Shown piece by piece: positions 10,278 through 40,410 of a stretch of DNA of 64,000 nucleotides (positions within the stretch are counted from its first letter, which is position 1; each line of letters begins with the position of its first letter). The notes beneath the pieces are model-generated. The model searched no databases and was not told the origin of the DNA. It saw only the letters and a program-made list of their open reading frames with translations. This stretch comes from an uncultured bacterium (GTDB lineage: Bacteria > Patescibacteriota > Minisyncoccia > Phycocordibacterales > GWA1-40-21), in the NCBI GenBank assembly GCA_963840885.1, contig CAWJAN010000001.1:115051-179050 (forward strand), in the 5' to 3' direction. Both the position numbers and the translations under genes were made by a program.

Positions 10278-10348
10278 CGGGAGATGGAGGAATCGGACCT
10301 CCGACAGCGGTTTTGGAGACCGCAGTTATACCACTTAACTAATCTCCC
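10278..10348 (-). tRNA. tRNA-Trp(CCA)
   Basis: Minus-strand cloverleaf GGGAGAT..AGTGGTA..GCGGT-CTCCAAA-ACCGC..GGAGG-TCCGATT-CCTCC-ATCTCCC-G. It lies in the conserved rpmG-tRNA-Trp arrangement. Confidence 0.8.
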
Positions 10349-12735: not shown

Positions 12736-12772
12736 AAAAATTATACAATGATCATTTAATATATGCAAATAT

Positions 12773-12810
12773 AAAACCGCCGCGGCAGAAGCCGCGGCGG
12801 TTTTATATTG
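12773..12810. terminator. bidirectional intrinsic terminator downstream of the pilin-like gene array
   Basis: A perfect 14-bp hairpin aaaaccgccgcggc-agaa-gccgcggcggtttt is present. Confidence 0.8.
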
Positions 12811-12813: not shown

Positions 12814-13056
12814 TTATCTCAAGCCAAGCGTGGAAAGTATGAAGTTTATTATACCTTTTGCGCTAAGCATGATGAATAGGCCGACGATGCCCCAGATCAT
12901 ATGGCTTATGCCTTCCTGCCTTTTGCTTTCATTATCTGCATTCTTTATGAACATGACCACTCCCCACATGAAATACAATATTGCCAAGGCGAATACAAGG
13001 TATTCGGCCGGCGTGAGTATATTGTTGACTATGTTCGTAAAAAGTTTGTCAAACAT
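12814..13056 (-). CDS. small two-TM protein, TrbC/VirB2-pilin-like family, paralog 1 (no signal peptide)
   Basis: 80 aa. TM1 is followed by a charged loop (NADNESKRQEG) and a TM2 carrying the MIWGIVGLFIMLSAKG motif shared with four upstream paralogs. Confidence 0.6.
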   Translation of the reverse strand: MFDKLFTNIVNNILTPAEYLVFALAILYFMWGVVMFIKNADNESKRQEGISHMIWGIVGLFIMLSAKGIINFILSTLGLR

Positions 13057-13081
13057 CTGGTTTGTCTCGTTTGTTTAAAAC

Positions 13082-13426
13082 TTAAGGGAGAGTTGGCAAA
13101 GTTACGGAAGAATTGCCGGTGCCAAACGTATTTACGAGTATTGCTACAAGTCCCCAGACAGAAACCATGACGAAGATTCCCACGATACCCCAGATCATCT
13201 GACCTTTGGCTTTCGACTTCTTTTCATCGCTGTCGGCAATGACAAATACGAAAACTTGCCATATGAAATAAACGACGGCAACCGCAATAAGAACAGGAAG
13301 AATAAGGTTTGCCAGCTGGTGGACATAATTGATGAGTCCGACTACTCCCTGGGTAGGCGTATATTGCGCAAGAGCCACTAAAGGCAAGAAGCTCGATACG
13401 GCCACTGCTGATATCTTTTTTAACAT
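13082..13426 (-). CDS. TrbC/VirB2-pilin-like small secreted membrane protein, paralog 2
   Basis: Signal peptide MLKKISAVAVSSFLPLVALA, then TM1, loop DSDEKKSKAKGQ, and TM2 MIWGIVGIFVMVSVWGLV. The internal ATG at 13424-13426 is the preferred start. Confidence 0.6.
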   Translation of the reverse strand: MLKKISAVAVSSFLPLVALAQYTPTQGVVGLINYVHQLANLILPVLIAVAVVYFIWQVFVFVIADSDEKKSKAKGQMIWGIVGIFVMVSVWGLVAILVNTFGTGNSSVTLPTLP

Positions 13427-13537
13427 AAACTGATTGTTTTTAAATAAACTATTAAATTTTAAAGCGACCAAAATTACGACTTTACATAATTATAAACTGA
13501 CTTATATAAGAGGGCAAGTCTCGTTATCTACACAAAA

Positions 13538-13945
13538 CTAAGGGGTTGGGACATTAACAGGCCTTATCTGTATCTGGGTATCATTGAGCCTGAAAGTATA
13601 TTGGAGAATATTCACGAGCCCCCATACGGAAACCATGACGAAAAGGCCTATGATTCCGTAGATTATGAAATCCTTGGCTTTCTTTTTATTGTCACCTTCG
13701 GCTCTTATGAAAGTGAAAACTCCCCAAAGAAAAGCCAGCACCGCTACAGCCATAAGAACTGGAACAAGAGGATTTATTATGCATCCTATAAACATATTCA
13801 TTACAAGTTCCTTGAAATTTCTCGGGGCCAAGCTGCAGGTAAAACCAGTGAGCGACAAATTGCTCTGGGCATATGAAGAGCCGTAAAACATTCCGAATAC
13901 GAGTGGAGAAACGGATATTGCAAAAATTTTAGCTCTTTTTTTCAT
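13538..13945 (-). CDS. TrbC/VirB2-pilin-like small secreted membrane protein, paralog 3
   Basis: Signal peptide MKKRAKIFAISVSPLVFGMFYGSSYA, then TM1, loop EGDNKKKAKD, and TM2 FIIYGIIGLFVMVSVWGLV. Confidence 0.6.
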   Translation of the reverse strand: MKKRAKIFAISVSPLVFGMFYGSSYAQSNLSLTGFTCSLAPRNFKELVMNMFIGCIINPLVPVLMAVAVLAFLWGVFTFIRAEGDNKKKAKDFIIYGIIGLFVMVSVWGLVNILQYTFRLNDTQIQIRPVNVPTP

Positions 13946-13950
13946 AAAAA

Positions 13951-14292
13951 TTATTGTCCAACTGACTTAATGGTTCCAACAACAAGTGACGCCAGAAGCT
14001 GTGCTCCGAGAAGTATTGCAACGCCTATTACTGTATAAAAGAAGAGTTCTTTTGCTTTCTGAATTTCAGCCGGTTTACCCTGTGCGCGTACGAATACAAA
14101 GCCAGACCAAATAAAGGCAACAATCGCTACAACTACTCCTACTCTTGTAATATAAGTAAGGACTATAGAGACAAGATTTGGAACATTTGTAGTACCTAAA
14201 GGATTTACTATCTGAGCGAAAGAAACAAATGGCATAGCAAGCTGAACAAGAGTTAGACCGCCTATTTTTTTAAACTGTAATATTTTTTTCAT
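13951..14292 (-). CDS. TrbC/VirB2-pilin-like small secreted membrane protein, paralog 4
   Basis: Signal peptide MKKILQFKKIGGLTLVQLAMPFVSFA, then two TM segments separated by the QGKPAEIQKAKE loop. The start is set at the internal ATG at 14290-14292 to avoid overlap with paralog 5. Confidence 0.55.
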   Translation of the reverse strand: MKKILQFKKIGGLTLVQLAMPFVSFAQIVNPLGTTNVPNLVSIVLTYITRVGVVVAIVAFIWSGFVFVRAQGKPAEIQKAKELFFYTVIGVAILLGAQLLASLVVGTIKSVGQ

Positions 14293-14312
14293 ATTTTTAT
14301 TTTTAATAAATT

Positions 14313-14702
14313 TTATTGACCGCCCAAGAATCTGAGCGCCGAGCCGGCATTCGGAACTATCCACTTGATAACCGTATAAACCGCAAGCCAAGAACAAAGG
14401 ACTATAATCATTCCTATAATGGTATTTTTGAACATATTTTTGGCTGCAGTTCTTTCTCCAGGGTTATTAGGATGCAAAAGCATTTTTCCTCCGGCTATTG
14501 CAAATGTAACAGCCGCAACTGAAATTGAAATGCCTAAAAAATATTTTAAGATATTATTTATCAGCTGTATGAAACTGTTGAAATTGCAATCCTGACCATT
14601 ACAAGGAATCACTCCTCCGCTTGATTGCGCGTAAGCCAAAAGCGGCAGAAAAACAAGCGAAGATACGGAGAATGCCAGGATTTTAGAAATATTTCTTTTC
14701 AT
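14313..14702 (-). CDS. TrbC/VirB2-pilin-like small secreted membrane protein, paralog 5 (Cys-containing)
   Basis: Signal peptide MKRNISKILAFSVSSLVFLPLLAYA, a CNGQDC motif, then TM1, loop NPGERTAAKNMFKN, and TM2 TIIGMIIVLCSWLAV. Confidence 0.55.
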   Translation of the reverse strand: MKRNISKILAFSVSSLVFLPLLAYAQSSGGVIPCNGQDCNFNSFIQLINNILKYFLGISISVAAVTFAIAGGKMLLHPNNPGERTAAKNMFKNTIIGMIIVLCSWLAVYTVIKWIVPNAGSALRFLGGQ

Positions 14703-14710
14703 TTGAATGA

Positions 14711-16003
14711 TTATAACAAATTATCCAGTTCTCCGCTTGCATTCTGAACGGAACTATCTACATCAAGACGTCCACTCGTTATATTTTGAATCATTTCCTT
14801 GAATATCTGGTCTGTCTTTGTCATATCCGGGTCAAGCCATCCTTCTGATATAAGAGCTGAGTTGAAAAATACGGTTTTTGCTGGATCTTTGGAACCTTGG
14901 GATATAAGATCCCTTCTTGCCGGGGCAAAATCGGAAACATTGGAAAATTCAGCTTCAGCCTGCGCGCTTGTAAGTGTCGAGATCAGCTGGAATGCAGGAA
15001 CTATATTAGGCGAATTCTTGACCAGAGAGAATCCGTAAAGCTCGCCGAATGTCAGCTTGTTTTTTGTACCGACAACCTGAGGAATCATGGAAACGTCAAA
15101 ATTCAAATTCGGATTCTTGTTCTTTATATCGCCGTATTCCGAAGCAAAGCCGAAATAAACCGCCAAGTTTTCGGCAAGGAAAGACTGCTTTGATGAAGGC
15201 AGGGATATATTCCATGAATAAACAGTTTTCTGGGGATTGGCATAATCCGTATAAAAAGTCATTGCCGAAACTGCAGGCACCGATACGTCCGTCAAAGACC
15301 TGGAATAAAGATCGGACTTAAGTGAGCCATTGTCATTTGCAACTATCTGACTTCCCGCCTGAAGTATGAGGTTGCTGACGATGGCTTTTGCATTATCTAT
15401 ATTGCCGTATTCGCCGAGAGCAACCGCGCTCTGCGTTATATTTCCGCTCTGATCAAGCTTTGTGAGCTTATCGGCAAGCGATGGAAATTCAGCCCATGTT
15501 GCCGGAGGCGTAGCGATGGCCGCACTTCCAAATAGATCTTTGTTCCAATACATCACGAGCGGATCGACAGCAAAAGGAAGAGCGAATGTTCCGCTTGCCT
15601 GAAGATAAAGGTCTGATTCAGGAACAAATGTATCCTGTATTGTGCGCACCGGAATGGACGTCATCAGATACACTTTATCCAGGTATCTTTCTTCAAGATC
15701 TTGCGGCACAAGTATGACATCAGGCTCCTTGCCAGTAGCTATGGCTTCAACCAAATCCCCGTCTATGGTATCAATGCTTTTCTGCGTATATTGTAGCCTG
15801 AGCGATGCATTGTAATCCTGATCGTATTGCTGGATAAAACTGTTGAATGTCGTGCTGTCTATAGTTCCCCAAATAGTTACTTCGACATTGGAATTTGTCG
15901 TGCTTGAGGATTTGTAAGTGGCAAAAACTACAAGCCCGACCACTATCAGAAGCCCGAATACGGCCAGCAATATCAATTTGAATTTATTATCTTCTTTTGG
16001 CAT
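14711..16003 (-). CDS. membrane-anchored extracellular solute-binding-protein-like (SBP family 1-like) protein
   Basis: N-terminal TM anchor followed by a domain of about 400 aa with SBP-like segments (VILVPQDL, YWNKDLFG, and a bilobed alpha/beta pattern). No permease or ATPase partner is adjacent. Confidence 0.5.
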   Translation of the reverse strand: MPKEDNKFKLILLAVFGLLIVVGLVVFATYKSSSTTNSNVEVTIWGTIDSTTFNSFIQQYDQDYNASLRLQYTQKSIDTIDGDLVEAIATGKEPDVILVPQDLEERYLDKVYLMTSIPVRTIQDTFVPESDLYLQASGTFALPFAVDPLVMYWNKDLFGSAAIATPPATWAEFPSLADKLTKLDQSGNITQSAVALGEYGNIDNAKAIVSNLILQAGSQIVANDNGSLKSDLYSRSLTDVSVPAVSAMTFYTDYANPQKTVYSWNISLPSSKQSFLAENLAVYFGFASEYGDIKNKNPNLNFDVSMIPQVVGTKNKLTFGELYGFSLVKNSPNIVPAFQLISTLTSAQAEAEFSNVSDFAPARRDLISQGSKDPAKTVFFNSALISEGWLDPDMTKTDQIFKEMIQNITSGRLDVDSSVQNASGELDNLL

Positions 16004-16024
16004 ATTTTATTAAAATTATTTTTC

Positions 16025-16552
16025 TTATTTTTTTCTGAATACCAATCCATAATGATGGGTGCCGGCATTTATGTCCCGCTCGTATTCGAAGCCGTGCTTT
16101 TCAAAAAGTTCCTTGGCTTTTTGTCCGCTGAAAACAGCTTGTGGCTCTGGTCCCATTCCTCCGAAAGATTCCGACCAGTCTATAACAAGAACCCTTCCGC
16201 CGCGCTTCAATATCCTCTTTATTTCCATGGCTGCATAGTCTTTCTGCTCAAGCTGAAAAAATATATTCGAGGCAATTATGGCATCGAGATATCCTTCCCT
16301 TAATTTTGTTCCGCCAAGATTATCCAAGTCGGTCCATATATTTTCAATATTCAGCAGATGCATTTCTTGGATATGCTTTTTAAGCTTATCAAGCAAGTCT
16401 TTCTGGACATCTATAGCATAAACCTTGCCTGATTCCCCTACGGCTTTGGACAATGCAAGAGCATAGCTGCCTGAACCTGTTCCGAAATCGGCAACCAGGC
16501 TTCCTTTCCCTATATTGAATTGTTCGATATTTTTTTCTGGATCGGAAAACAT
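16025..16552 (-). CDS. class I SAM-dependent methyltransferase
   Basis: Motif I VADFGTGSGSYAL is present, followed by acidic motif II (AIDV) and motif III (LKRGGRVLVID). Confidence 0.75.
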   Translation of the reverse strand: MFSDPEKNIEQFNIGKGSLVADFGTGSGSYALALSKAVGESGKVYAIDVQKDLLDKLKKHIQEMHLLNIENIWTDLDNLGGTKLREGYLDAIIASNIFFQLEQKDYAAMEIKRILKRGGRVLVIDWSESFGGMGPEPQAVFSGQKAKELFEKHGFEYERDINAGTHHYGLVFRKK

Positions 16553-16607
16553 ACGATTATCGAATAATTATAGCTTTATTGGCAAAAGAAGTCCATGAAT
16601 CGGCTAT

Positions 16608-16636
16608 TATAAAACCGCATAATACGCGGTTTTATA
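16608..16636. terminator. bidirectional intrinsic terminator
   Basis: Hairpin aaaaccgc-ataatac-gcggtttt. Confidence 0.7.
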
Positions 16637-16639
16637 AAG

Positions 16640-18109
16640 CTATTTTTTATTTTTCCACTTCTCTATCTCTTTGACTTCTTTTCTGATATATAGTTCTGCG
16701 TCTTCTAAATCATTCTTGAGCTCATTGTTGATTTCTTCTTCCTCCTCGGTCAGCTCTCTTCTGTTTTTGACTTTTTCCAGCTTTCTGATCTGCTCCACTA
16801 CACTTTCTTTAAGCAGATCAAAAGCCTTATGAATCGCATCCTCCGCTTCATCGACTTTTTTGTCTATCAGGAAGAATCTGCGCCATGCATACCATAGCAA
16901 AAGTATCAGAAGTATAATCAAGGAAAGAAGAGGAATGAATATGTCCAAGAAGCTTATGGCCCAGTTTCCTATTATGATTATAGCTGGAGGCCTGACGCTT
17001 ATGCTTATTTCCTTGCTTGACGAGCTTACCGCGCCGCGGCTATCGGTTATCTCTGCCCATATCGTATATGTGCCGTCTTTTAATCCTTCAGTCGATACTA
17101 CCGTGAAATTGCCGCTTGAATCTACACTCGAAATATATTTCCTGATATATCCGCTTGAGTCTTTCAGATAAAGATCCGCTTCGGAATTAAAATATTTCGT
17201 TGTTCCGGACACCGACAAGATGTCGTCTGTTTTTAGGTTTATAGGATAATTGGTTATTATAGGGGCTTCAAGCGATTGCACGAAGAACTGTGCGGAATTT
17301 ATCAGGATATTTCCAAGCTTGCTTACAGCTTTTACCAAAAGAGTATGATTGCCGGCTTCTTGTATCGGAGTCTTATAAATATGGCTGCCGTCGTCATTCC
17401 AGATTTCACTGCTATTATTGTCTATCTGGATTTCGTAATGATCTACGGAATAAGTGCTGTCGGATACGGAAAGCTTGAAGCTTGCCACTGGATCCGTAAG
17501 ATCAGTTCTTTTTATTTCAGTTATATTTAAAACGGCTTGCCCCGTAGACGGAGTAGGCGTCGGCTGATTTTTTACATCCAAAATTGTATATGATGCCTGG
17601 CCGGTGCCCGTAGTTATATCGGTGCCGGAACCGTCGGCTGCAAGGACCGATCCTGAGGTAAAAGACAAGTTTGCCGTCCCGGGTGCCAAAGCCTTAAACG
17701 TAATCGATATTATATTTCCCGAGGAACCTTGGTACCATGGCGGCAAAACTACGCCTTCAAAACTTATTGTGCCTTCAATATTAGAAGAAGCCGGTTCTTG
17801 CGCCCAAAAACCGAATATTGAGCTGCTTTTTGAAATAGAAGAAACTGAAATCAGGTTTGCAGGAAAAGAAATGATTCCTGAAGCGGCATTCATGACTTTG
17901 TCAGCGCTCGAAACCAATACATTTACGGTAAAATAAGAGCCTTTGGTATATGTGCCTGAATTCGGAGACAGCAAGAGCGTAGCCGCCGAAGCTTTAAAGG
18001 CATTTGGAATAAAAAAGGCCGTGATAATGGATAGCAGAAAAAATGTTTTAATAAAAATATCATTAAAACGGCTACAGGAATTTTTTATGTTTGGCTTAAA
18101 CGTTCCCAT
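16640..18109 (-). CDS. cohesin-like domain surface protein with C-terminal TM anchor and coiled coil
   Basis: Signal peptide, then a beta-sandwich segment reading LLLSPNSGTYTKGSYFTVNVLVSS...ISFPANLISV...ISITFKALAPGTANLSFTSGSVLAADGSG, a cohesin-type pattern. A C-terminal TM helix and a charged coiled coil follow. The ATG overlaps the stop of the upstream gene (TAATG). Confidence 0.5.
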   Translation of the reverse strand: MGTFKPNIKNSCSRFNDIFIKTFFLLSIITAFFIPNAFKASAATLLLSPNSGTYTKGSYFTVNVLVSSADKVMNAASGIISFPANLISVSSISKSSSIFGFWAQEPASSNIEGTISFEGVVLPPWYQGSSGNIISITFKALAPGTANLSFTSGSVLAADGSGTDITTGTGQASYTILDVKNQPTPTPSTGQAVLNITEIKRTDLTDPVASFKLSVSDSTYSVDHYEIQIDNNSSEIWNDDGSHIYKTPIQEAGNHTLLVKAVSKLGNILINSAQFFVQSLEAPIITNYPINLKTDDILSVSGTTKYFNSEADLYLKDSSGYIRKYISSVDSSGNFTVVSTEGLKDGTYTIWAEITDSRGAVSSSSKEISISVRPPAIIIIGNWAISFLDIFIPLLSLIILLILLLWYAWRRFFLIDKKVDEAEDAIHKAFDLLKESVVEQIRKLEKVKNRRELTEEEEEINNELKNDLEDAELYIRKEVKEIEKWKNKK

Positions 18110-18993
18110 TATTTTTTATTCTTCCTTCTTTGAAATATGAAATATGCGCAAGCAACTGAAATTACCATTATAATTATAAACCAGACTTCTATATTTTCAT
18201 ACCAAGGCAACGGATTTTGTGGGGATAATTTTTCAATCCTGGTATTTCCTTTCTTATCGATGGCTTTAACGTAAATATAGCTCCTTAAATCCTGATCGGC
18301 CAATACGTACGGGCTTGTTGCAGGAACCCATTTTGAAAAATCAAATATAAAGTACCTGGATTCCTTTACCTCATATCCTGCTATACCAGAACCTTTGTCT
18401 TCGGCCGCAAAAGATAAAAACCATTTGCCGTCAAAAATATTCGGATCACGTGATATCTCCGGCTTGAAAGCTTCCGGGGGCTCGTTATCGGCAATATTAA
18501 GAGATGGTGAGCTTGTAGGAATGACGGAACTTGAAATATTCAAATTCAGGTCGGATGTCTTTATTTTATCCGCAGTACCGTTGCCATCATTCAGCAAAGC
18601 GCTTGCATTTGTAATTTTTATCGGAGCGCTTCCCTCTTTCTTCGTTTTAAATATAAGAGACAGTACAAAACCTTTATCCAAAATGAATCCGCCTGGAGTT
18701 ATCCCGGAGAAAACTATTTCTCCGTTAAGGAGTGCCGGCTGGTCCACCCAGAAATTTACAACGGAATTACCTATTCTTATTTCTGACAGATCCAATAAGT
18801 TCGCAGGAAAATATATCTTTCCGCTTACTGCATTTATATTCTCCTTTTCCGTATTTATGTTCAGATCAACCTCAAATTCCTGCCCTATAGATAAGCTTTT
18901 GCTTGCGGTATCAAAAGAAAATTCAGAACCGAATGCCGATTTCGGGCAAAAAATCACTAAAAATAATAAGGTTATATAAAATTTATTTTTCAT
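18109..18993 (-). CDS. cohesin-like domain surface protein with C-terminal TM anchor
   Basis: Signal peptide, then LSIGQEFEVDLNINTEKENINAVSGKIYFPANLLDL...LSLIFKTKKEGSAPIKITNASALLNDGNGT, which parallels the neighbouring cohesin-like gene. The C-terminus is VWFIIIMVISVACAYFIFQRRKNKK. Confidence 0.5.
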   Translation of the reverse strand: MKNKFYITLLFLVIFCPKSAFGSEFSFDTASKSLSIGQEFEVDLNINTEKENINAVSGKIYFPANLLDLSEIRIGNSVVNFWVDQPALLNGEIVFSGITPGGFILDKGFVLSLIFKTKKEGSAPIKITNASALLNDGNGTADKIKTSDLNLNISSSVIPTSSPSLNIADNEPPEAFKPEISRDPNIFDGKWFLSFAAEDKGSGIAGYEVKESRYFIFDFSKWVPATSPYVLADQDLRSYIYVKAIDKKGNTRIEKLSPQNPLPWYENIEVWFIIIMVISVACAYFIFQRRKNKK

Positions 18994-19050
18994 CTTGTGA
19001 TAATTGTTTTCATTTTAATTTTATGGTTCTCCTGGATTTTTAGATTTGCC

Positions 19051-20385
19051 TTATCCGGTCCAATAATATGCCATTATGGAAAAGTCTACGAGATCGATCT
19101 TTCCGTCTCCGTTCAGTTCTGTTTTTTCTATCTTACTGAAAGCATCGCTTAAAGTATTTTTATACCAATACGATCCTATGGAAAAATCTACGAGATTTAC
19201 TTTACAATCCCCGTTTAAATCTCCCTTTATGGGACATTTTATGACGGGCAATGCGGCGACATTCTGGTCTCCGACCAAAAATGATACGGTCTGGCTGAAA
19301 TCGGATATCGATTGATCTGATGCCGAAGCTTTTGATTTTGTCATGTGCGTTCCCAGATCGACTTGCGAAGTGTCGAAATTATAAAGATATATTCCATTTT
19401 TATCTGAAGATGTGGTGGCAAAAATCTCTTGCGGAGAATGAACGGATATTATTATATTCGCATCATCGGCAGATTGCCCGAAAATCGCTATATTGTCCCC
19501 TTGTTTCACTTCGCTTTTATCCACGGCTATTGTTGGAGCTATAAAAATTCCGCTGACATTTGTGGTTGCTCCGTAAGTAACGCTTACCGGAAATGTCAGG
19601 CTTGTTGACCTGTTTCCCTGATAATCTTCCGAATAGACGCTGAAGAAATAATTCCCTCCTGAAATTCCGTTCAATGTTATTTGGAAATTGGAATCCGTGC
19701 CGGCAACAGTAGAAGCCGCAACTTGCGCATCCTTCAGCAAAGTTACTGTGCTTTGAGGATAGGCTCTTCCAGAAAATACAACTGATGTTGCGCCGCCTCC
19801 TCCGCCTCCTCCTCCGCCCCCGCCTCCTCCGCCTGCAGGCGGCGGCGCAGCAGGCGTGGAAGAAACTTGCGTTGATGTAGCTATTATATTTCCGAATGCG
19901 TCTTCGACTCTTATTACAAAATAATACGCCGTTCCGTTCGATAATCCGGTCTTTACATAAGAAAGGACGTTTCCCAAAGATGGGCCGAAAGTATAGGGGC
20001 CTCCGGATAGGGTGGAAACGCCTACGTCATAACCGGATGCTGTCCAGCCTAAAATGCCTGTGGCTGATGTCCACAACAAAGTTACTTGGGAATCGCCAGC
20101 TGTTGCCGATACTGCAGGAGTGCTTACAAAAGGAAAATATAAAAATCCCGAGTTTATTTTAAAATCCGTGGCGGTACTCGTGCCTATTCCGATTTGTCCT
20201 AGAGTGCTTATAAGGGTATAGCTTGTCGACGAAGAGAGTCCGCCGCCGTTTGATTCCACTGGATCCAGTATTTTATAATCGACGGAGGAATATTCCGCTG
20301 CGAAAAGATTTCTGCCTGTAAAAATAGCGGCAAACAAAAAAAATAATATTGCCGACAGCCTTATTTTTTTGTGCAACTTGTTCAT
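19051..20385 (-). CDS. secreted FN3/Ig-like protein with poly-Gly tract and C-terminal type I dockerin
   Basis: Signal peptide present. An FN3-like segment reads YDVGVSTLSGGPY...GTAYYFVIRVEDAFGN. There is a run of 14 Gly. The C-terminus carries duplicated calcium-binding dockerin segments DLNGDCKVNLVDFSI and LNGDGKIDLVDFSIMAYYW. Confidence 0.6.
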   Translation of the reverse strand: MNKLHKKIRLSAILFFLFAAIFTGRNLFAAEYSSVDYKILDPVESNGGGLSSSTSYTLISTLGQIGIGTSTATDFKINSGFLYFPFVSTPAVSATAGDSQVTLLWTSATGILGWTASGYDVGVSTLSGGPYTFGPSLGNVLSYVKTGLSNGTAYYFVIRVEDAFGNIIATSTQVSSTPAAPPPAGGGGGGGGGGGGGGATSVVFSGRAYPQSTVTLLKDAQVAASTVAGTDSNFQITLNGISGGNYFFSVYSEDYQGNRSTSLTFPVSVTYGATTNVSGIFIAPTIAVDKSEVKQGDNIAIFGQSADDANIIISVHSPQEIFATTSSDKNGIYLYNFDTSQVDLGTHMTKSKASASDQSISDFSQTVSFLVGDQNVAALPVIKCPIKGDLNGDCKVNLVDFSIGSYWYKNTLSDAFSKIEKTELNGDGKIDLVDFSIMAYYWTG

Positions 20386-20410
20386 ATCCTTAAAAATCTG
20401 CCGCGAAAAA

Positions 20411-20824
20411 TTAATTGCCCTTTGGTGTTGCAGCTGTTGCCGTAGTGGTGGAAATTTCGCTTGTATCTATAGGAGCTATTTCAACCACTTTATCTTCGCT
20501 TGGGTCAAATAATATGGCCTTCTGGGCTTTTATATAAATGAGTATCTTGTCGCCGACTTTAGCATTCTCGAAAAACGGCTGGCCTTTGAGCGCATTCGTA
20601 TCGGTTACTGTGGCTATGGTAGGAGTTTCATCTGTAGGCAAAACAACGAGCTTGCTAACCGATGATACTAGCTGATTTATCTCATTCTGTGCGGCCTGGT
20701 CAGATGTTTTTGGAACTTGCGCAAGCTTGATACATAAGAAGACTATAACTGCGAGCGATAAGAAAAACAGAAACCAAGGAATCATTATCTGATATTTGCT
20801 TTTGAGTTTTATTTGAGGGAACAT
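20411..20824 (-). CDS. small N-terminally anchored membrane protein, unknown function
   Basis: Single N-terminal TM (IMIPWFLFFLSLAVIVFLCI) with an extracytoplasmic tail. Confidence 0.4.
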   Translation of the reverse strand: MFPQIKLKSKYQIMIPWFLFFLSLAVIVFLCIKLAQVPKTSDQAAQNEINQLVSSVSKLVVLPTDETPTIATVTDTNALKGQPFFENAKVGDKILIYIKAQKAILFDPSEDKVVEIAPIDTSEISTTTATAATPKGN

Positions 20825-20867
20825 CTTTAATTTTAATATTTTTATTACTTTCTATTATATTAGCTTT

Positions 20868-28052: not shown

Positions 28053-28093
28053 TTTTATGCTTAAATTATATCAATGGCGATTGATATTGTCTA

Positions 28094-31090: not shown

Positions 31091-31117
31091 TTATTATCTT
31101 CTATTGATATAAATTTA

Positions 31118-34100: not shown

Positions 34101-37100
34101 GTATTCGTAACATATCCGGACAAAAGATTTGCAGTCGAAGTTGCAATGACATTTCCCAAAGAATCAGCCGCGAGAAGAGTTGAAGCTATTCCGTTTCCTA
34201 GAGAAAGCTGGCTGATGCTTGTTGTAGCGAGATTAGAACTTCCTAAAACGCTTAATATGGATGAAAGATTAGCTGATCCTGAAATGGTTGTTGTGGAAAA
34301 AGTAGAAGTGCCGGAAACAGTAAGCTGATTTGAACCAAGATTTACATTGGAGCTTGCTCCCGTATAGGGAACATAATTGGCAAGCGCAGCAGAAGTTGCA
34401 TATGTTGATGAGCCGTAAGCATATGTCACGAAAGTTGATGAAGCGTAAGTGAATGTCGGATATGTGGCTGTGGCGTTTGCGATTGTCAGGTATGTGGAAG
34501 CGGCGGAAGTGGTGGAAAGGTATCCTCCGAGTGTTGTTGCCAATGTTCCCGTGGAGACGTAATTGATGGCAGCCTGAAGCTGGGAAAGATATGTCGAAGA
34601 TCCGTAAGTGAATGTCGGATATGTGGCTGTGGCGTTTGCGATTGTCAGGTATGTGGAAGCGGCGGAAGTGGTGGAAAGATACGGTGCGAGAGCGGAAGCC
34701 GTGATGAATCCTGAAGTAGAGTTGTCAGCGGTGGAAAGGTCTTGTCCGGAGATGTTTGAGATGTATCCAGACGGATTCGAAGCAAGGTAGAAGTCGGATG
34801 ATGAAGCGCTTGGAATATACGGAAGCGATGTCGAAGCGGAAAGAGGAAGGTATGTTGCTGCTGCAGATGTTGTTGAAAGGTATCCTCCGAGTGTTGTTGC
34901 CAATGTTCCCGTGGAGACGTAATCGATGGCAGCCTGAAGCTGGGAAAGATATGTCGAAGATCCGTAAGTGAATGTCGGATATGTGGCTGTGGCGTTTGCG
35001 ATTGTCAGGTATGTGGAAGCGGCGGAAGTGGTGGAAAGATACGGTGCGAGAGCGGAAGCCGTGATGAATCCTGAAGTAGAGTTGTCAGCGGTGGAAAGGT
35101 CTTGTCCGGAGATGTTTGAGATGTATCCAGACGGATTCGAAGCAAGGTAGAAGTCGGATGATGAAGCGCTTGGAATATACGGAAGCGATGTCGAAGCGGA
35201 AAGAGGAAGGTATGTTGCTGCTGCAGATGTTGTTGAAAGGTATCCTCCGAGTGTTGTTGCCAATGTTCCCGTGGAGACGTAATCGATGGCAGCCTGAAGC
35301 TGGGAAAGATATGTCGAAGATCCGTAAGTGAATGTCGGATATGTGGCTGTGGCGTTTGCGATTGTCAGGTATGTGGAAGCTGCGGAAGTGGTGGAAAGAT
35401 ACGGTGCGAGAGCGGAAGCCGTGATGAATCCTGAAGTAGAGTTGTCAGCGGTGGAAAGGTCTTGTCCGGAGATGTTTGAGATGTATCCAGACGGATTCGA
35501 AGCAAGGTAGAAGTCGGATGATGAAGCGCTTGGAATATACGGAAGCGATGTCGAAGCGGAAAGAGGAAGGTATGTTGCTGCTGCAGATGTTGTTGAAAGG
35601 TATCCTCCGAGTGTTGTTGCCAATGTTCCCGTGGAGACGTAATCGATGGCAGCCTGAAGCTGGGAAAGATATGTCGAAGATCCGTAAGTGAATGTCGGAT
35701 ATGTGGCTGTGGCGTTTGCGATTGTCAGGTATGTGGAAGCTGCGGAAGTGGTGGAAAGATACGGTGCGAGAGCGGAAGCCGTGATGAATCCTGAAGTAGA
35801 GTTGTCAGCGGTGGAAAGGTCTTGTCCGGAGATGTTTGAGATGTATCCAGACGGATTCGAAGCAAGGTAGAAGTCGGATGATGAAGCGCTTGGAATATAC
35901 GGAAGCGATGTCGAAGCGGAAAGAGGAAGGTATGTTGCTGCTGCAGATGTTGTTGAAAGGTATCCTCCGAGTGTTGTTGCCAATGTTCCCGTGGAGACGT
36001 AATTGATGGCAGCCTGAAGCTGGGAAAGATATGTCGAAGATCCGTAAGTGAATGTCGGATATGTGGCTGTGGCGTTTGCGATTGTCAGGTATGTTGCTGC
36101 TGCAGATGTTGTTGAAAGGTATCCTCCGAGAGAAGAGATGGTTGCGAATGTCGTCGAAGCGTAAGTGAATGTCGGATATGTGGCTGTGGCGTTTGCGATT
36201 GTCAGGTATGTGGAAGCGGCGGAAGTGGTGGAAAGGTATCCTCCGAGAGAAGAGATGGTTGCGAATGTCGTCGAAGCGTAAGTGAATGTCGGATATGTGG
36301 CTGTGGCGTTTGCGATTGTCAGGTATGTGGAAGCGGCGGAAGTGGTGGAAAGTTTTGCATCAAGTGCGGCTTGCAAATCGGTTTGATCAGAAAGTAAACC
36401 GGTGATGGCTCCCCATGCGACGGTTGCTGACCCGCTTGAAGCAAAAGCCCAGGCATATCCGTTTGGTGCAGTGCTTGATGCCTGAAGAAATTGTCCGGCT
36501 GTTCCCGTTGCGATAGATGTAAGTCCTGAAGAAGAATTGAATATTGCGATTTGTCCTGCTGTTCCCGTCCCCGTTATCGGATTCGTAAGCGTAGTCTGAT
36601 ATGTCGAAGATCCGTAATCATATGTGACAAAAGTTGATGATGCGTATGTATATGGAACATATGTCGAAGCTGCCGTTGCCGAAGTAAGATACGGTGCGAG
36701 AGCTGATGAATCAATGTATCCAGACGGATTCGAAGCAAGGTAGAAGTCGGATGATGAAGCGCTTGGAATATACGGAAGCGATGTCGAAGCGGAAAGAGGA
36801 AGGTATGTTGCTGCTGCAGATGTTGTTGAAAGGTATCCTCCGAGAGAAGAGATGGTTGCGAATGTCGTCGAAGCGTAAGTGAATGTCGGATATGTGGCTG
36901 TGGCGTTTGCGATTGTCAGGTATGTGGAAGCTGCGGAAGTGGTGGAAAGATACGGTGCGAGAGCGGAAGCCGTGATGAATCCTGAAGTAGAGTTGTCAGC
37001 GGTGGAAAGGTCTTGTCCGGAGATGTTTGAGATGTATCCAGACGGATTCGAAGCAAGGTAGAAGTCGGATGATGAAGCGCTTGGAATATACGGAAGCGAT

Positions 37101-40100
37101 GTCGAAGCGGAAAGAGGAAGGTATGTTGCTGCTGCAGATGTTGTTGAAAGGTATCCTCCGAGTGTTGTTGCCAATGTTCCCGTGGAGACGTAATCGATGG
37201 CAGCCTGAAGCTGGGAAAGATATGTCGAAGATCCGTAAGTGAATGTCGGATATGTGGCTGTGGCGTTTGCGATTGTCAGGTATGTGGAAGCTGCAGATGT
37301 TGTTGAAAGGTATCCTCCGAGAGAAGAGATGGTTGCGAATGTCGTCGAAGCGTAAGTGAATGTCGGATATGTGGCTGTGGCGTTTGCGATTGTCAGGTAT
37401 GTGGAAGCGGCGGAAGTGGTGGAAAGATACGGTGCGAGAGCGGAAGCCGTGATGAATCCTGAAGTAGAGTTGTCAGCGGTGGAAAGGTCTTGTCCGGAGA
37501 TGTTTGAGATGTATCCAGACGGATTCGAAGCAAGGTAGAAGTCGGATGATGAAGCGCTTGGAATATACGGAAGCGATGTCGAAGCGGAAAGAGGAAGGTA
37601 TGTTGCTGCTGCAGATGTTGTTGAAAGGTATCCTCCGAGTGTTGTTGCCAATGTTCCCGTGGAGACGTAATCGATGGCAGCCTGAAGCTGGGAAAGATAT
37701 GTCGAAGATCCGTAAGTGAATGTCGGATATGTGGCTGTGGCGTTTGCGATTGTCAGGTATGTTGCTGCTGCAGATGTTGTTGAAAGGTATCCTCCGAGAG
37801 AAGAGATGGTTGCGAATGTCGTCGAAGCGTAAGTGAATGTCGGATATGTGGCTGTGGCGTTTGCGATTGTCAGGTATGTGGAAGCGGCGGAAGTGGTGGA
37901 AAGTTTTGCATCAAGTGCGGCTTGCAAATCGGTTTGATCAGAAAGTAAACCGGTGATGGCTCCCCATGCGACGGTTGCTGACCCGCTTGAAGCAAAAGCC
38001 CAGGCATATCCGTTTGGTGCAGTGCTTGATGCCTGAAGAAATTGTCCGGCTGTTCCCGTTGCGATAGATGTAAGTCCTGAAGAAGAATTGAATATTGCGA
38101 TTTGTCCTGCTGTTCCCGTCCCCGTTATCGGATTCGTAAGCGTAGTCTGATATGTCGAAGATCCGTAATCATATGTGACAAAAGTTGATGATGCGTATGT
38201 ATATGGAACATATGTCGAAGCTGCCGTTGCTGAAGTAAGATACGGTGCGAGCGCTGATGAATCAATGTATCCAGACGGATTCGAAGCAAGGTAGAAGTCG
38301 GATGATGAAGCGCTTGGAATATACGGAAGCGATGTCGAAGCGGAAAGAGGAAGGTATGTTGCTGCTGCAGATGTTGTTGAAAGGTATCCTCCGAGTGTTG
38401 TTGCCAATGTTCCCGTGGAGACGTAATCGATGGCAGCCTGAAGCTGGGAAAGATATGTCGAAGATCCGTAAGTGAATGTCGGATATGTGGCTGTGGCGTT
38501 TGCGATTGTCAGGTATGTGGAAGCTGCAGATGTGGTTGAAAGGTATCCTCCGAGAGAAGAGATGGTTGCGAATGTCGTCGAAGCGTAAGTGAATGTCGGA
38601 TATGTGGCTGTGGCGTTTGCGATTGTCAGGTATGTGGAAGCTGCGGAAGTGGTGGAAAGATACGGTGCGAGAGCGGAAGCCGTGATGAATCCTGAAGTAG
38701 AGTTGTCAGCGGTGGAAAGGTCTTGTCCGGAGATGTTTGAGATGTATCCAGACGGATTCGAAGCAAGGTAGAAGTCGGATGATGAAGCGCTTGGAATATA
38801 CGGAAGCGATGTCGAAGCGGAAAGAGGAAGGTATGTTGCTGCTGCAGATGTTGTTGAAAGGTATCCTCCGAGTGTTGTTGCCAATGTTCCCGTGGAGACG
38901 TAATCGATGGCAGCCTGAAGCTGGGAAAGATATGTCGAAGATCCGTAAGTGAATGTCGGATATGTGGCTGTGGCGTTTGCGATTGTCAGGTATGTTGCTG
39001 CTGCAGATGTTGTTGAAAGGTATCCTCCGAGTGTTGTTGCCAATGTTCCCGTGGAGACGTAATCGATGGCAGCCTGAAGCTGGGAAAGATATGTCGAAGA
39101 TCCGTAAGTGAATGTCGGATATGTGGCTGTGGCGTTTGCGATTGTCAGGTATGTGGAAGCTGCGGAAGTGGTGGAAAGTTTTGCATCAAGTGCGGCTTGC
39201 AAATCGGTTTGATTGGAAAGCGTACCAGTGATTGCACCCCACACTCCGTTTCCTCCACTACTGCTTGCAAGCACCCAATCATATCCAGTAGGAGAAGTTG
39301 AAGATGCTCTCAAAAACATTCCGTCTGTGGAAGTGCCTATGCTCGACAATGTTCCAGTTGCTGTCCAGTAAGAAAGTTGTCCTGCGACTCCGCTGCCGGA
39401 AATTTTATTATTAAAATTTGTCCAATCTGATGATGAAAGATATCCGTCATTTGTCGATGAGGCAATACCAAGCTTTGTTCTTATTGATGAAGAAGATTCA
39501 TCTCCGGTATTTATTCCTGTTGAAGTTCCTGTAAAATTTGAAGCGGAAATATTTCCGGAAAAGTTTGCGTCCGCGGCGCTTAAAAGTCCATTGCTGTCTA
39601 TGGAAAAAATATTTGTTCCTGTCGAATCTTGAATTTGAAAAATATTTGCAACCTGTCCCAGAAAAGCCCTGACGGTAAGCGCGGTGGAATCCGTGGATGT
39701 AGAAAGTATACTCACCACGGAATTATCTATTGGGGTTGTAGTTCCGAAAGATGATTGCCCTGCTCCGCTTACGGCTCCAGCCACCTGAGAAAATGCTGCG
39801 GAAGTTATTTTTTGTCTTGGGCTAAGAGTTTGGAATGTAACATTGTCGGAAGAAACTTCAATCTGCAGATATATGGAATTATTCGTATTGAAATTGTAAT
39901 CCAAAATATCAGGGTAGCCGGCTACAGTATCTCCGATATTTACATTAAAAACTCCCTGGCGGACTTGCGAAGAAAAAGATGTTGGCGCCGATGCTGGCCA
40001 GAGTTTTGTGCCAGAACCGACGGTAGAATTATCCCAAATTGAAAATTTAAAATAATAATTTGTTCCGGTTCCTCCCAAAAGATTTCCGCTTGAATCCGCA

Positions 40101-40231
40101 AGCCTGCCTTGATAAGAAAGGATGGTAGGAACTCCATTTTGTGCAAAAACAAAATTTTCGCTTAATAACGGAGAAAAAGCGAAACAGAGGACAAACAATA
40201 AAATTAGTGATTTTTTATAGGTTTTTACCAT
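31118..40231 (-). CDS. giant repeat-rich secreted protein (about 3038 aa from the signal-peptide ATG) with fiber-like Tyr/Ser/Thr repeats and a C-terminal Ig-like (DUF5011-type) domain
   Basis: One uninterrupted 9.1-kb ORF. The signal peptide MVKTYKKSLILLFVLCFAFSPLLS starts at the ATG at 40229-40231. The central region of about 4.8 kb consists of near-identical tandem repeats with unit LSTTSAA(S/A)TYLTIANATATYPTFTY(G/A)SSTYLSQLQAAIDYVSTGTLATTLGGY. The C-terminus has a TSTSTDTT S/T linker. It ends in a segment PVITLNGSNPVNLTVGDTYADAGATATDDVDGNVSV...GTYAITYSATDAAGN, typical of bacterial Ig-like surface domains. Confidence 0.75.
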   Translation of the reverse strand: MVKTYKKSLILLFVLCFAFSPLLSENFVFAQNGVPTILSYQGRLADSSGNLLGGTGTNYYFKFSIWDNSTVGSGTKLWPASAPTSFSSQVRQGVFNVNIGDTVAGYPDILDYNFNTNNSIYLQIEVSSDNVTFQTLSPRQKITSAAFSQVAGAVSGAGQSSFGTTTPIDNSVVSILSTSTDSTALTVRAFLGQVANIFQIQDSTGTNIFSIDSNGLLSAADANFSGNISASNFTGTSTGINTGDESSSSIRTKLGIASSTNDGYLSSSDWTNFNNKISGSGVAGQLSYWTATGTLSSIGTSTDGMFLRASSTSPTGYDWVLASSSGGNGVWGAITGTLSNQTDLQAALDAKLSTTSAASTYLTIANATATYPTFTYGSSTYLSQLQAAIDYVSTGTLATTLGGYLSTTSAAATYLTIANATATYPTFTYGSSTYLSQLQAAIDYVSTGTLATTLGGYLSTTSAAATYLPLSASTSLPYIPSASSSDFYLASNPSGYISNISGQDLSTADNSTSGFITASALAPYLSTTSAASTYLTIANATATYPTFTYASTTFATISSLGGYLSTTSAASTYLTIANATATYPTFTYGSSTYLSQLQAAIDYVSTGTLATTLGGYLSTTSAAATYLPLSASTSLPYIPSASSSDFYLASNPSGYIDSSALAPYLTSATAASTYVPYTYASSTFVTYDYGSSTYQTTLTNPITGTGTAGQIAIFNSSSGLTSIATGTAGQFLQASSTAPNGYAWAFASSGSATVAWGAITGLLSDQTDLQAALDAKLSTTSAASTYLTIANATATYPTFTYASTTFATISSLGGYLSTTSAAATYLTIANATATYPTFTYGSSTYLSQLQAAIDYVSTGTLATTLGGYLSTTSAAATYLPLSASTSLPYIPSASSSDFYLASNPSGYISNISGQDLSTADNSTSGFITASALAPYLSTTSAASTYLTIANATATYPTFTYASTTFATISSLGGYLSTTSAASTYLTIANATATYPTFTYGSSTYLSQLQAAIDYVSTGTLATTLGGYLSTTSAAATYLPLSASTSLPYIPSASSSDFYLASNPSGYISNISGQDLSTADNSTSGFITASALAPYLSTTSAASTYLTIANATATYPTFTYASTTFATISSLGGYLSTTSAAATYLPLSASTSLPYIPSASSSDFYLASNPSGYIDSSALAPYLTSATAASTYVPYTYASSTFVTYDYGSSTYQTTLTNPITGTGTAGQIAIFNSSSGLTSIATGTAGQFLQASSTAPNGYAWAFASSGSATVAWGAITGLLSDQTDLQAALDAKLSTTSAASTYLTIANATATYPTFTYASTTFATISSLGGYLSTTSAASTYLTIANATATYPTFTYASTTFATISSLGGYLSTTSAAATYLTIANATATYPTFTYGSSTYLSQLQAAINYVSTGTLATTLGGYLSTTSAAATYLPLSASTSLPYIPSASSSDFYLASNPSGYISNISGQDLSTADNSTSGFITASALAPYLSTTSAASTYLTIANATATYPTFTYGSSTYLSQLQAAIDYVSTGTLATTLGGYLSTTSAAATYLPLSASTSLPYIPSASSSDFYLASNPSGYISNISGQDLSTADNSTSGFITASALAPYLSTTSAASTYLTIANATATYPTFTYGSSTYLSQLQAAIDYVSTGTLATTLGGYLSTTSAAATYLPLSASTSLPYIPSASSSDFYLASNPSGYISNISGQDLSTADNSTSGFITASALAPYLSTTSAASTYLTIANATATYPTFTYGSSTYLSQLQAAIDYVSTGTLATTLGGYLSTTSAAATYLPLSASTSLPYIPSASSSDFYLASNPSGYISNISGQDLSTADNSTSGFITASALAPYLSTTSAASTYLTIANATATYPTFTYGSSTYLSQLQAAINYVSTGTLATTLGGYLSTTSAASTYLTIANATATYPTFTYASSTFVTYAYGSSTYATSAALANYVPYTGASSNVNLGSNQLTVSGTSTFSTTTISGSANLSSILSVLGSSNLATTSISQLSLGNGIASTLLAADSLGNVIATSTANLLSGYVTNTYASSTFPSFTYASSTFVTYAYGTSTYALLANTPTYTYASSTFPSFGYASSTYYFASNPSGYITNTVSTLTNYPTYTYASSTFSTYAYGTSTYATIANYPTYTYASSTFAALTGATFTGSVTINGTTTLATTTISNLKLGNGLVGSFLAVDGSGNVISTTSPILSGGTNGKVARWTSTSTLSSGVLFDNGTVAGVNATTSTSSFLVQGASGINPFAVSSSTGANLFTISQSGQAMIGTTTSFSLAKLLIDGSVSADGATNAIAGINGNYNVNPTAGGVQVGNRFVVNVQPTTNANTVVGEIMRMVDNTTLANTTRGMEIVSNAGSNTSGVNTGIRTTGATFGLQAITAGNAGGVLLPAALYAENDGTTQGDVLRLYTNTMTTATSVASFYQETSAFSGEGLTMNFGKGGGSFTGNFIDLKKNDTSLFTVNSNGIVSIGLATTTVSTAVCSTLATGTSPSAGSIYTLGDCSSAPSADYAENYPVATGTEYGDIVVTGSQLVNTYGTATDTSVDYNNVLGQITELVKSNSPYQKNTVGIVSDNHGNFTSAGYNIKKEDNPMPIALNGRVPVKISSSSEEINPGDYLTTSNDPGKAMKATGAGFVIGKALGSWSPSSTSTTVMVYVEQGYYNGQSISEFAGINIDNGIYPDDFAKQVLDKLLNGTSTAENSSELFTGRLAAGVEIITPQITANGLTIDHVNSLSDAISFNSDTIFFGTPYFNSDTAGFATIYKGATSVDVTFDKPYLVDPVVNATISLDSSVDAAAVSVAIFNNEIKYLVADKSTNGFTIMINNPAPEDIEFSWTAFAVKGAKDFMSIIPSSPSPAMGQGSDQSSDTSETSSSTTSTSTDTTSTSTDTTSTSTDTTSADDTASTTDTTSTTTDTEATTTPPAPADTTAPVITLNGSNPVNLTVGDTYADAGATATDDVDGNVSVTTSGTVDTSTAGTYAITYSATDAAGNNAKATREVDVTEPVQTEQATTTGTTDSTSTEATSSSQ
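34400..39250. repeat. nested near-perfect tandem repeat array inside the giant gene (117-nt subunit, 360-nt unit, about 1.5-kb higher-order unit)
   Basis: Antisense ORFs at 34608, 34968, 35328 and 35688 are exactly 360 nt apart, and their translated proteins are identical. The 360-nt unit recurs at 34561, 34921, 35281, 35641 and 36001. A 117-nt subunit dominates 36060-36360. Blocks starting at about 36351 and 37902 are identical over several hundred bp (offset 1551 nt). A third divergent copy starts near 39177. Confidence 0.9.
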
Positions 40232-40363
40232 ACAAATAATGCCTGTACACTCAAATAAATGCCTTATTTGATCAACTGGCATTATTATAACACTGTATGC
40301 ATAGAATATACAAATATATGTTGATAAAAATACGTTTAAAAATATGGATATTTTATTCCATTG

Positions 40364-40410
40364 ACAAAAAAACCGGTTCTTAGCTTAAGAAATCCGGTTT
40401 TTTATTTTTT
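40364..40410 (-). terminator. intrinsic terminator downstream of gyrA
   Basis: Hairpin aaaaaaccgg-ttcttagcttaagaaat-ccggtttttt. Confidence 0.7.

Follow-up and report, generated by a model that had tools for sequence, protein, structure and literature searches.

Between positions 12814 and 40282, the minus strand of a 64-kb stretch of an uncultured patescibacterial genome (contig CAWJAN010000001.1; the whole stretch is referred to here as the window) carries an unbroken series of 14 open reading frames (ORFs), denoted g14 to g1 in the order of transcription. Our comparison with related genomes indicates that in this block two independent transcription units, each widely conserved on its own in the Paceibacteria (Parcubacteria), have very probably been brought together in a lineage-specific manner. 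The upstream unit, module B (16640-40282), encodes giant secreted proteins (g14 to g12) and a cohesin-dockerin set (g11 to g8), and the downstream unit, module A (12814-16552), an S-adenosylmethionine (SAM) methyltransferase (g7), a solute-binding protein (SBP, g6) and five VirB2/TrbC-like pilins (g5 to g1). We favor two units because the modules are linked in 0 of 80 and 1 of 84 loci of relatives, lie apart within one genome and are separated by a seam with a terminator and a conserved methyltransferase promoter, and because the relative L169 lacks the insertion. An initial annotation of this DNA had described the block as a run of 16 genes with almost no intergenic space, suggestive of a dedicated attachment or host/partner-interaction apparatus.

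The two modules are conserved separately in related genomes

For module A, we compared 80 loci from species-representative Paceibacteria genomes by tblastn with every window protein, and for module B, 84 loci around homologues of g10. ORFs in these loci were called by a simple longest-ORF procedure, and the small size of g11 and of divergent pilins restricts how well these can be recognised. For the SBP, more than 1284 homologues (45-68% identity) were retrieved, and those with names are labelled Paceibacterota or Patescibacteria. The methyltransferase gene is situated immediately upstream of the SBP gene in 78 of the 80 loci, gyrA is found upstream of the SBP in 69 and pilin genes downstream of it in 62-74, with arrays of 3-7 pilin genes in the relatives. 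No homologue of g8-g14 was detected by tblastn near the SBP in any of the 80 loci. The gap between gyrA and the methyltransferase gene has a median of 166 nucleotides (nt) and a maximum of 3.5 kb (68 loci), compared to 23.9 kb in the window. Two relatives with contigs of ~0.7 Mb possess the order S1, Lactamase_B_3, gyrA, methyltransferase, SBP, five pilins, MurJ, IPPT, ParB, RelA and TopA, thus the same flanks as the window, with gyrA abutting the methyltransferase gene and no gene between them. The same is apparent in L169, the closest relative found (gyrA 93%, g1 and g2 80% and SBP 68% identical), in which 88 nt separate gyrA from the methyltransferase gene and the insertion is lacking.

In 22 of 68 relatives (including L011, L023, L048, L055 and L081), additional ORFs (0.4-3.5 kb), most of them unannotated, occupy the spacer between gyrA and the methyltransferase gene, and this spacer may be a hotspot for small insertions. 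The extra ORFs at this junction are not surface cassettes. In L055, the spacer harbors an additional T4SS_pilin gene upstream of the methyltransferase gene.

Module B is similarly widespread. The dockerin protein g10 has more than 1754 homologues with 53-70% identity, several of them named as Parcubacteria or Taylorbacteria proteins, and the g9 family comprises 6224 clusters (50% identity, E ≤ 1e-3). A cohesin-like gene directly follows the g10 homologue in all 80 loci that include a downstream gene; 52 loci contain two or more cohesin-like genes and 11 three or more. Upstream of the g10 homologue, a g11-like gene is located in 29 of 68 loci and a giant ORF in 19 of the 26 loci with at least 6 kb of upstream sequence. 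The proximity of giants to the cohesin-dockerin genes is not random, as ORFs of 1000 amino acids (aa) or more occur in 23 of 31 g10 loci (at least 15 kb) versus 5 of 49 pilin-operon control loci, i.e. 4.5 versus 0.5 per 100 kb, an approximately nine-fold difference. The non-repetitive domains of g14 at its N-terminus (aa ~10-350) and C-terminus (aa ~2560-2940) are found again in neighboring giants in 27 of the 84 loci. The gene order of the window is retained in L084, which carries a g14-like C-terminus, a g12/g13-like giant and g11-, g10-, g9- and g8-like genes (38-68% identity); its g8-like gene is directly followed by a tRNA-Ser gene (10258-10345) and then by RuvX and PilM, and the methyltransferase gene is not there.

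A gene of module A was found in only one of the 84 module B loci, L102, where a single 191-aa pilin-like ORF matching g1 follows the g8-like gene; no locus apart from L102 and the window has a pilin beside module B. Furthermore, both modules could be located within the same genome in two relatives. On a 733-kb contig, module A occupies 387-409 kb (L012) and module B 282-304 kb (L086), ~100 kb apart, and in the metagenome-assembled genome GCA_964412245.1 the modules reside on separate contigs, 34 (L010) and 10 (L170), with different neighbors.

In L084 and L086 (16355-21395), the two closest relatives, type IV pilus genes (PilM, PilB) come after the cassette. A fixed link of the cassette to such genes was rejected as a rule, as it applies to 2 of the 44 loci whose downstream sequence is long enough.

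The seam between the modules carries a terminator and promoter-like sites

The genes g8 and g7 are separated by a spacer of 87 nt, which contains a terminator hairpin overlooked in the initial annotation and thereafter sigma-70-like promoter matches (Table 1). The spacer in front of the L169 methyltransferase gene has the same layout, namely a hairpin after the upstream gene and then the motif ATAAAG-YTATAAT, the upstream gene there being gyrA and not g8. The block is hence not seamless, and its gene number also had to be revised to 14 ORFs, the number to which the genes listed in the initial annotation themselves add up. The strong terminators proposed at both ends were recovered as hairpins at 12768-12809 and 40365-40402. 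Within module B, a promoter match of 11/12 precedes g12.

The outer flanks of the block consist of housekeeping genes, with gyrA (40429-42906) upstream and the RNase P RNA gene (12398-12731) and MurJ downstream. All genes of the block indeed share one strand; however, the minus-strand run spans 9152-43910, i.e. ~35 kb with ~21 features including MurJ, the RNase P RNA and gyrA. Since this run exceeds the block on both sides, co-orientation is no evidence for a single unit, and the strand bias is regional rather than specific for the locus.

These data bear directly on the proposal that the whole 27 kb are one co-transcribed, integrated apparatus for attachment or host interaction, in which pilins, cohesin-dockerin scaffold and giants act together. 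It draws on the common strand and the short spacers, on the fact that every product except g7 is an envelope protein, on the pilin-like ORF behind the g8-like gene in L102 and on the extra pilin gene upstream of the methyltransferase in L055. The synteny of the entire block, however, is not conserved in the relatives (0/80 and 1/84 loci), two relatives keep the modules separated in the same genome, the seam bears a terminator and an independent conserved promoter, and the same-strand run extends far beyond the block. We therefore regard a single apparatus as highly unlikely. What stands of this proposal is the assignment as a cell-surface locus, as all products save the methyltransferase are predicted envelope or surface proteins.

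Several points weigh against our interpretation as two units or against parts of it. Transcriptional read-through past the seam hairpin is possible, and the adjacency of the modules could be selectively favored in this lineage. The contig is derived from a metagenome, and an intragenomic misjoin at the seams is possible, though no repeat is present there. Likewise, the 99%-identical repeats in g14 may be collapsed or expanded in the assembly, so that their copy number may be wrong. The lack of a VirB4, VirB6 or coupling-protein gene near module A leaves family assignment as the basis for a role of the pilins in type IV secretion, and as the giants contain neither cohesin nor dockerin, their physical connection to g8-g11 is predicted from synteny.

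Origin of the juxtaposition

Among ~165 loci, the juxtaposed arrangement is unique to this genome. Judged by the compared sequences, the juxtaposition appears to be a lineage-specific rearrangement, and the ancestral position of module A would be directly after gyrA. The GC content at third codon positions (GC3) amounts to 0.36-0.42 in the module B genes and 0.42 in gyrA, and g6 and g7 are alike. As the GC3 of module B equals that of its flanks, the rise in bulk GC is attributable to the Ser/Thr/Gly/Ala content of the giants. Neither seam contains repeats, tRNA genes or mobile-element genes, and the identities of g8-g10 to their relatives track those of the SBP and the methyltransferase. Taken together, flank-like GC3, clean seams and tracking identities fit a vertically inherited cassette that was translocated within the genome into the spacer between gyrA and the methyltransferase gene, while horizontal transfer or a prophage fit less well.

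An assembly artefact, i.e. a chimeric join within the metagenome-assembled contig, would also explain why the arrangement is unique among the loci. In line with this, the contig is 247.9 kb long, all tested proteins are singletons on it and g14 contains long near-identical repeats. Against a chimeric join speak that no repeat is common to, or located at, the two seams, that both seams are ordinary terminator-promoter spacers, that modules A and B have their nearest relatives in the same lineages and in the same sample, and that the codon GC3 is uniform across the region. Hence, we judge an artefact to be very improbable.

We also consider it very improbable that module B entered the gyrA|methyltransferase junction as an island gained by horizontal transfer, or as a degraded prophage or tail-fibre cassette. 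Such an origin is suggested by the match of g12 residues 71-711 to phrog_2295, by fibre-like repeats in g14, the counterpart of which in a relative has Peptidase_S74, by the bulk GC raised over 20-40 kb and by the extra ORFs at the junction in 22/68 relatives. It is contradicted by the GC3 shared with the flanks, the absence of integrase, capsid and terminase genes from the block and of flanking repeats, the membership of g10 and g9 in very large Parcubacteria families with identities at housekeeping divergence, and the occurrence of the cassette at other chromosomal sites in relatives. A prophage origin was rejected, since the phrog_2295-matching part of g12 gave no match in a tblastn search against 50,697 phage records.

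g8 and g9 carry cohesin modules and g10 a dockerin

Pfam detects the cohesin modules of module B below threshold, with PF00963 (Cohesin) scoring 17.5 bits for g8 and 17.8 bits for g9 at a cut-off of 24.1. Cohesin is also the sole recurrent Pfam match within the g9 family (6 of 49 members, best E 3.3e-6), and a profile of this family retrieved only cohesins from the PDB sequences (E 0.002-0.03). For g9, an AlphaFold model based on 48 representatives of the family has a predicted local distance difference test score (pLDDT) of 94.6. When this model was employed in a Foldseek search, the top 50 PDB matches were all cohesins, with template modelling (TM) scores to target of 0.6-0.8 and root-mean-square deviations (rmsd) of 2.5-3.7 Å over ~140 residues. 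The best match was 2w1n, a cohesin-FN3 pair (E 3e-11), and 2vo8 aligned with a TM score of 0.80 and an rmsd of 2.6 Å. According to this model, g9 has the beta-sandwich (jelly-roll) fold of cohesins. The N-terminal region of g8 matches the hidden Markov model (HMM) of the family cohesin with an E-value of 1e-26.

For g10, PF00404 (Dockerin_1) scores 22.7 bits compared to a cut-off of 22.9. PF00404 hits are precomputed for many of its homologues, some of which NCBI designates 'dockerin type I repeat-containing protein'. The C-terminus of g10 displays two near-symmetric, strongly conserved DxNxDxxxxxxD-VDFSI repeats with the invariant residues D389, N391, D393 and D400 in one set and N425, D427 and D434 in the other, each set being followed by VDFSI. 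In the model of g10, three C-terminal helices are apparent (398-407, 414-423 and 432-443). A Foldseek search with the whole model returned generic FN3 tandems only and was uninformative on the dockerin, which was assessed by sequence instead; its best matches among PDB sequences are type I dockerins (E 3e-5 to 1e-4) and span both repeats. The hydrophobicity profile shows a signal peptide as the sole membrane-directed feature of g10.

Residues 30-88 of g10 (20122-20298) are the most conserved part of the family, yet the AlphaFold model has a pLDDT below 50 there. The HMM of this domain matches g10-like proteins only, and the domain may fold only with a partner.

In the window and all 84 loci, the family HMMs find dockerins in g10-like proteins only and cohesins in g8/g9-like proteins only. 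Each locus encodes one dockerin and one to three single-cohesin proteins, and a double cohesin is present in 4 of 148 proteins. The cohesin-dockerin part of the initial annotation is thereby upheld: the two cohesin-like anchored proteins by the fold of g9, the family HMM for g8 and the C-terminal transmembrane helices of both, the dockerin-FN3 protein by profile and structure-based tests of g10, and the small anchored protein by the N-terminal anchor of g11.

The giant proteins g12, g13 and g14

The giants had been reported with 2394, 998 and about 3038 aa, in agreement with our measurements of 2394, 998 and 3037 or 3054 aa. The two values for g14 reflect alternative starts: translation probably starts at 40231 (3037 aa), and a TGnTATAAT element abuts the ATG at 40282 (3054 aa). 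The repeat stretch of g14 exhibits a strong GC skew of around +0.4. Its repeats could stem from variation in length or from collapse or expansion during assembly.

The proposal that the giants share modules holds for g12 and g13, which are paralogues with a common N-terminal module, a ~150-aa module (present three times in g12) and a ~550-aa C-terminal region at 52-65% identity. It does not extend to g14, for which no significant similarity to g12 or g13 was found with composition correction. A Pfam search of the giants in sub-segments gained solely the Laminin_G_3 domain of g12, and PDB sequence searches with g12, g13 and the N- and C-terminal parts of g14 recovered the terminal Ig-like domain only. 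For g13, only 40 homologues were found among 5.8 billion proteins. The match of g12 to phrog_2295 (E 8e-59) is the only PHROG hit obtained, and the function of that family is unknown. The family HMMs detected neither cohesin nor dockerin in giants of the window and the 84 loci, and docking of the giants via modules of their own was thus rejected.

The C-termini of g12 and g13 (20868-21000 and 28094-28230), as well as those of P0122 and P0123, consist of an S/T-rich linker, the motif 'GGGGGDVGL' and a ~40-aa hydrophobic or amphipathic tail. This shared motif and tail may be an unrecognised sorting or anchoring signal.

The gyrA-linked pilin operon

All five pilins exceed the cut-off of PF18895 (T4SS_pilin) with 33.4-53.6 bits compared to 26.6, and g4 additionally scores 29.8 bits for TrbC (cut-off 27.9). 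The proteins comprise 80-135 aa and have two hydrophobic helices each in the hydrophobicity profile. The N-terminal leaders of g2-g5 end in AQ/AYAQ, and g1 is devoid of a leader. Pairwise identities among the five adjacent pilins are 21-49%. Their order, g5-g4-g3/g2-g1, is positionally conserved across relatives, which is indicative of old and probably non-redundant paralogues.

Homologues of g6 are named extracellular solute-binding protein. ABC permease or ATPase genes were found beside the SBP gene neither in the window nor in L001, L002 and L169, and genes for machinery of a type IV secretion system (T4SS; VirB4, VirB6, VirB3 and coupling protein) neither in the window nor within ±10 kb of module A in L001 and L002. 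The gene content initially proposed for this part of the block is thus corroborated, with five VirB2/TrbC-like proteins above the Pfam cut-off, an orphan membrane-anchored solute-binding-like protein (SBP_bac_1 match, N-terminal anchor, no adjacent ABC partners) and a class-I SAM methyltransferase (Pfam).

Comparison to characterized systems

The initial annotation had not recognised the combination of genes as a described system. This is still accurate for the cohesin-dockerin operon, which appears to be undescribed for the group, but VirB2-like pilin arrays have been published and non-cellulosomal cohesin-dockerin pairs are known. Arrays of 2-11 VirB2-like pilin genes were described for Patescibacteria (Quinonero-Coronel et al. 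2025, PMC12102498), and a pilin series is essential in Ca. Southlakia epibionticum (Wang et al. 2023, PMC10633639). Module A resembles the published arrays in its tandem small PF18895/PF04956 proteins with two hydrophobic helices each, in its gene number of five and in its sequence diversity, the 21-49% identity comparing to a published mean of 25% and a maximum of 54%. It differs in that the 64 kb contain no virB4, virB6 or other T4SS gene and in that the array is joined in an operon-like manner to an anchored SBP and a methyltransferase after gyrA (in ~78/80 Paceibacteria species), an arrangement on which PMC12102498 is silent.

The closest counterparts of the cohesin-dockerin genes are non-cellulosomal pairs, exemplified by the glycoside-hydrolase/toxin complexes of Clostridium perfringens (PDB 2w1n, 2vo8 and 2jh2) and the Archaeoglobus fulgidus cohesin 2xdh. 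Common to both are the cohesin fold (TM up to 0.80), an FN3-like module next to it as in 2w1n, a dockerin with two Ca-binding repeats and the lack of cellulose-degrading enzymes. In contrast to these pairs, the cohesins of module B are part of C-terminally membrane-anchored proteins, its single dockerin protein bears no enzyme but only Ig/FN3 domains and the conserved N-terminal domain, and the genes form a fixed operon beside giant surface proteins in an ultra-small episymbiont lineage, where binding is predicted. With cellulosomes, which combine scaffoldin cohesins with dockerin-bearing glycoside hydrolases, module B shares both module types and a secreted partner, here predicted to be anchored at the cell surface. 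It does not contain a multi-cohesin scaffoldin, and since a glycoside hydrolase and a carbohydrate-binding module are also lacking, it is not a cellulosome.

The giants are reminiscent of giant fibre adhesins and of phage-tail-fibre-like host-recognition proteins in their size of more than 2000 aa, their richness in Ser/Thr/Gly/Ala, their near-identical tandem repeats and their Ig-like and Laminin_G_3 lectin-like domains. The small number of g13 homologues (40) likewise resembles the rapid mosaic evolution of such proteins. In contrast to giant fibre adhesins, they show no RTX, LPXTG or autotransporter signature, most of their length is without a solved or Pfam-defined domain, and the common C-terminal 'GGGGGDVGL' motif with its hydrophobic tail is unusual.

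A search of the literature outside subscription journals for cohesins or dockerins of Patescibacteria or Parcubacteria yielded rumen and other metagenome surveys only, and no description of the operon. Conserved cohesin-dockerin genes combined with giant proteins of the fibre or lectin type hence appear to be new for these bacteria, and we regard this half of the block as the more interesting one.

Proposed functions of the two modules

Based on family assignments, module A would most likely supply the pilin subunits of a patescibacterial T4SS, the ATPase and channel genes of which would be encoded elsewhere. Alternatively, the anchored SBP, the methyltransferase and the five VirB2-like proteins could jointly form an uptake device that does not depend on a classical T4SS, a function that we consider less likely than the surface-display function proposed below for module B.

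Module B probably represents a non-cellulosomal cohesin-dockerin surface cassette. Here, g8 and g9 would be type-I membrane proteins that present an N-terminal cohesin on an Ig/FN3 stalk. The secreted g10 would dock on these cohesins with its C-terminal, internally symmetric type-I-like dockerin in a Ca2+-dependent manner, exposing its Ig/FN3 rod and the conserved domain at its N-terminus on the cell surface. We think it rather probable that g10 is anchored in this way. The repeat-rich fibre g14 and the paralogues g12 and g13 with their lectin- or Gly-rich domains would be fast-evolving adhesins that are produced along with the anchor set and probably mediate contact to a host or partner cell. 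A physical link of the giants to the cohesin-dockerin anchor set is unlikely in our estimate. In a wider and tentative proposal, which we rate as rather unlikely, the g11-g10-g9-g8 operon and the hypervariable giants would constitute a Paceibacteria-wide surface-display system and the main host-attachment organelle of these episymbionts, in which the cohesins hold a dockerin-tipped rod and the N-terminal domain of g10 captures or organises the giants. The binding of g10 to g8 and g9, its surface display, the attachment role and the use of the pilins by a T4SS are all predictions from sequence and structural models.

To our knowledge, the attachment of uncultivated Paceibacteria to partner cells and their exploitation of these are little understood, and nearly all mechanistic work concerns Saccharibacteria. 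What looked like a large new system consists of two independent operons, which alters the annotation of the region and yields two testable and very widely conserved gene sets, the gyrA-linked methyltransferase-SBP-five-pilin operon and the cohesin-dockerin operon. If the cohesin-dockerin pair anchors surface proteins, it would provide a defined protein-protein interaction that is testable in vitro without culturing, and a genomic marker for the fast-evolving host-recognition proteins of the group.

Features of the block and additional observations in the window

The coordinates of the genes and regulatory elements are compiled in Table 1.

Table 1. Genes, repeats and signals of modules A and B, listed from the upstream to the downstream end of the block (dG, folding free energy; z, z-score)
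Feature	Position	Strand	Basis
Terminator hairpin 3' of the gyrA stop; upstream edge of module B	40365..40402	-	read in sequence; fold dG -14.1, z -3.5
Promoter-like region of g14: TTGTCA-17-TATTTT; TGnTATAAT at 40284-40292	40283..40367	-	consensus matches only
g14, giant, 3037 aa, Ser/Thr/Ala/Tyr-rich: conserved N-terminal domain (aa ~10-350), repeat core, conserved C-terminal region (aa ~2560-2940), Bact_surface_Ig-like (aa 2958-3027)	31118..40231	-	
Tandem repeats inside g14, periods 360, 117, 477 and 159 nt, 95-100% DNA identity	34515..39154	-	
g13, secreted g12 paralogue, 998 aa, without Pfam domain	28094..31090	-	
g12, giant, 2394 aa: Gly_rich_2 (aa 461-705), DUF2341, Laminin_G_3 lectin-like domain (aa ~1480-1770)	20868..28052	-	
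g11, 137 aa, N-terminal membrane anchor	20411..20824	-	hydrophobicity profile
g10, dockerin protein, 444 aa: signal peptide, conserved N-terminal domain (aa 30-88), FN3, Gly linker, two Ig-like domains, C-terminal type-I-like dockerin (aa ~385-444)	19051..20385	-	
g9, 294 aa: signal peptide, cohesin module, FN3/Ig-like domain, C-terminal transmembrane helix (aa 268-286)	18109..18993	-	AlphaFold, Foldseek
g8, 489 aa: signal peptide, cohesin module (aa ~44-180), Big_13/Ig-like domains, transmembrane helix (aa 387-405), charged cytoplasmic tail	16640..18109	-	family HMM
Palindromic terminator hairpin, 3 nt past the g8 stop; module B/module A seam	16607..16637	-	dG -19.1, z -4.9
Promoter-like sites 5' of methyltransferase g7; ATAAAG-YTATAAT motif	16556..16595	-	motif also 5' of L169 ortholog
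g7, class-I SAM methyltransferase, 175 aa, first gene of module A	16025..16552	-	Pfam; directly upstream of SBP in 78/80 relatives
g6, family-1 solute-binding protein (SBP_bac_1), 430 aa, single N-terminal transmembrane anchor	14711..16003	-	profile match E 8.6e-21
g5, VirB2/TrbC-like pilin	14313..14702	-	PF18895
g4, VirB2/TrbC-like pilin; likely ATG at 14292	13951..14292	-	PF18895 + PF04956
g3, VirB2-like pilin	13538..13945	-	PF18895
g2, VirB2-like pilin; likely ATG at 13426	13082..13426	-	PF18895
g1, VirB2-like pilin core, 80 aa, two transmembrane segments, without signal peptide	12814..13056	-	PF18895
Strong palindromic terminator hairpin closing module A, just upstream of the RNase P RNA	12768..12809	-	dG -34.5, z -8.8

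The RNase P RNA on the minus strand is of the bacterial class A type (116.8 bits) and has the terminator of the last pilin gene on one side and MurJ on the other. Outside the block, a 278-aa ORF with a PKD-like domain is located between dprA and topA (1549-2385, minus strand) and encodes a probable surface protein. A low-GC stretch at 57892-60016 (GC 0.32 over 58-60 kb) contains a 384-aa ORF without Pfam match and may be a small island.

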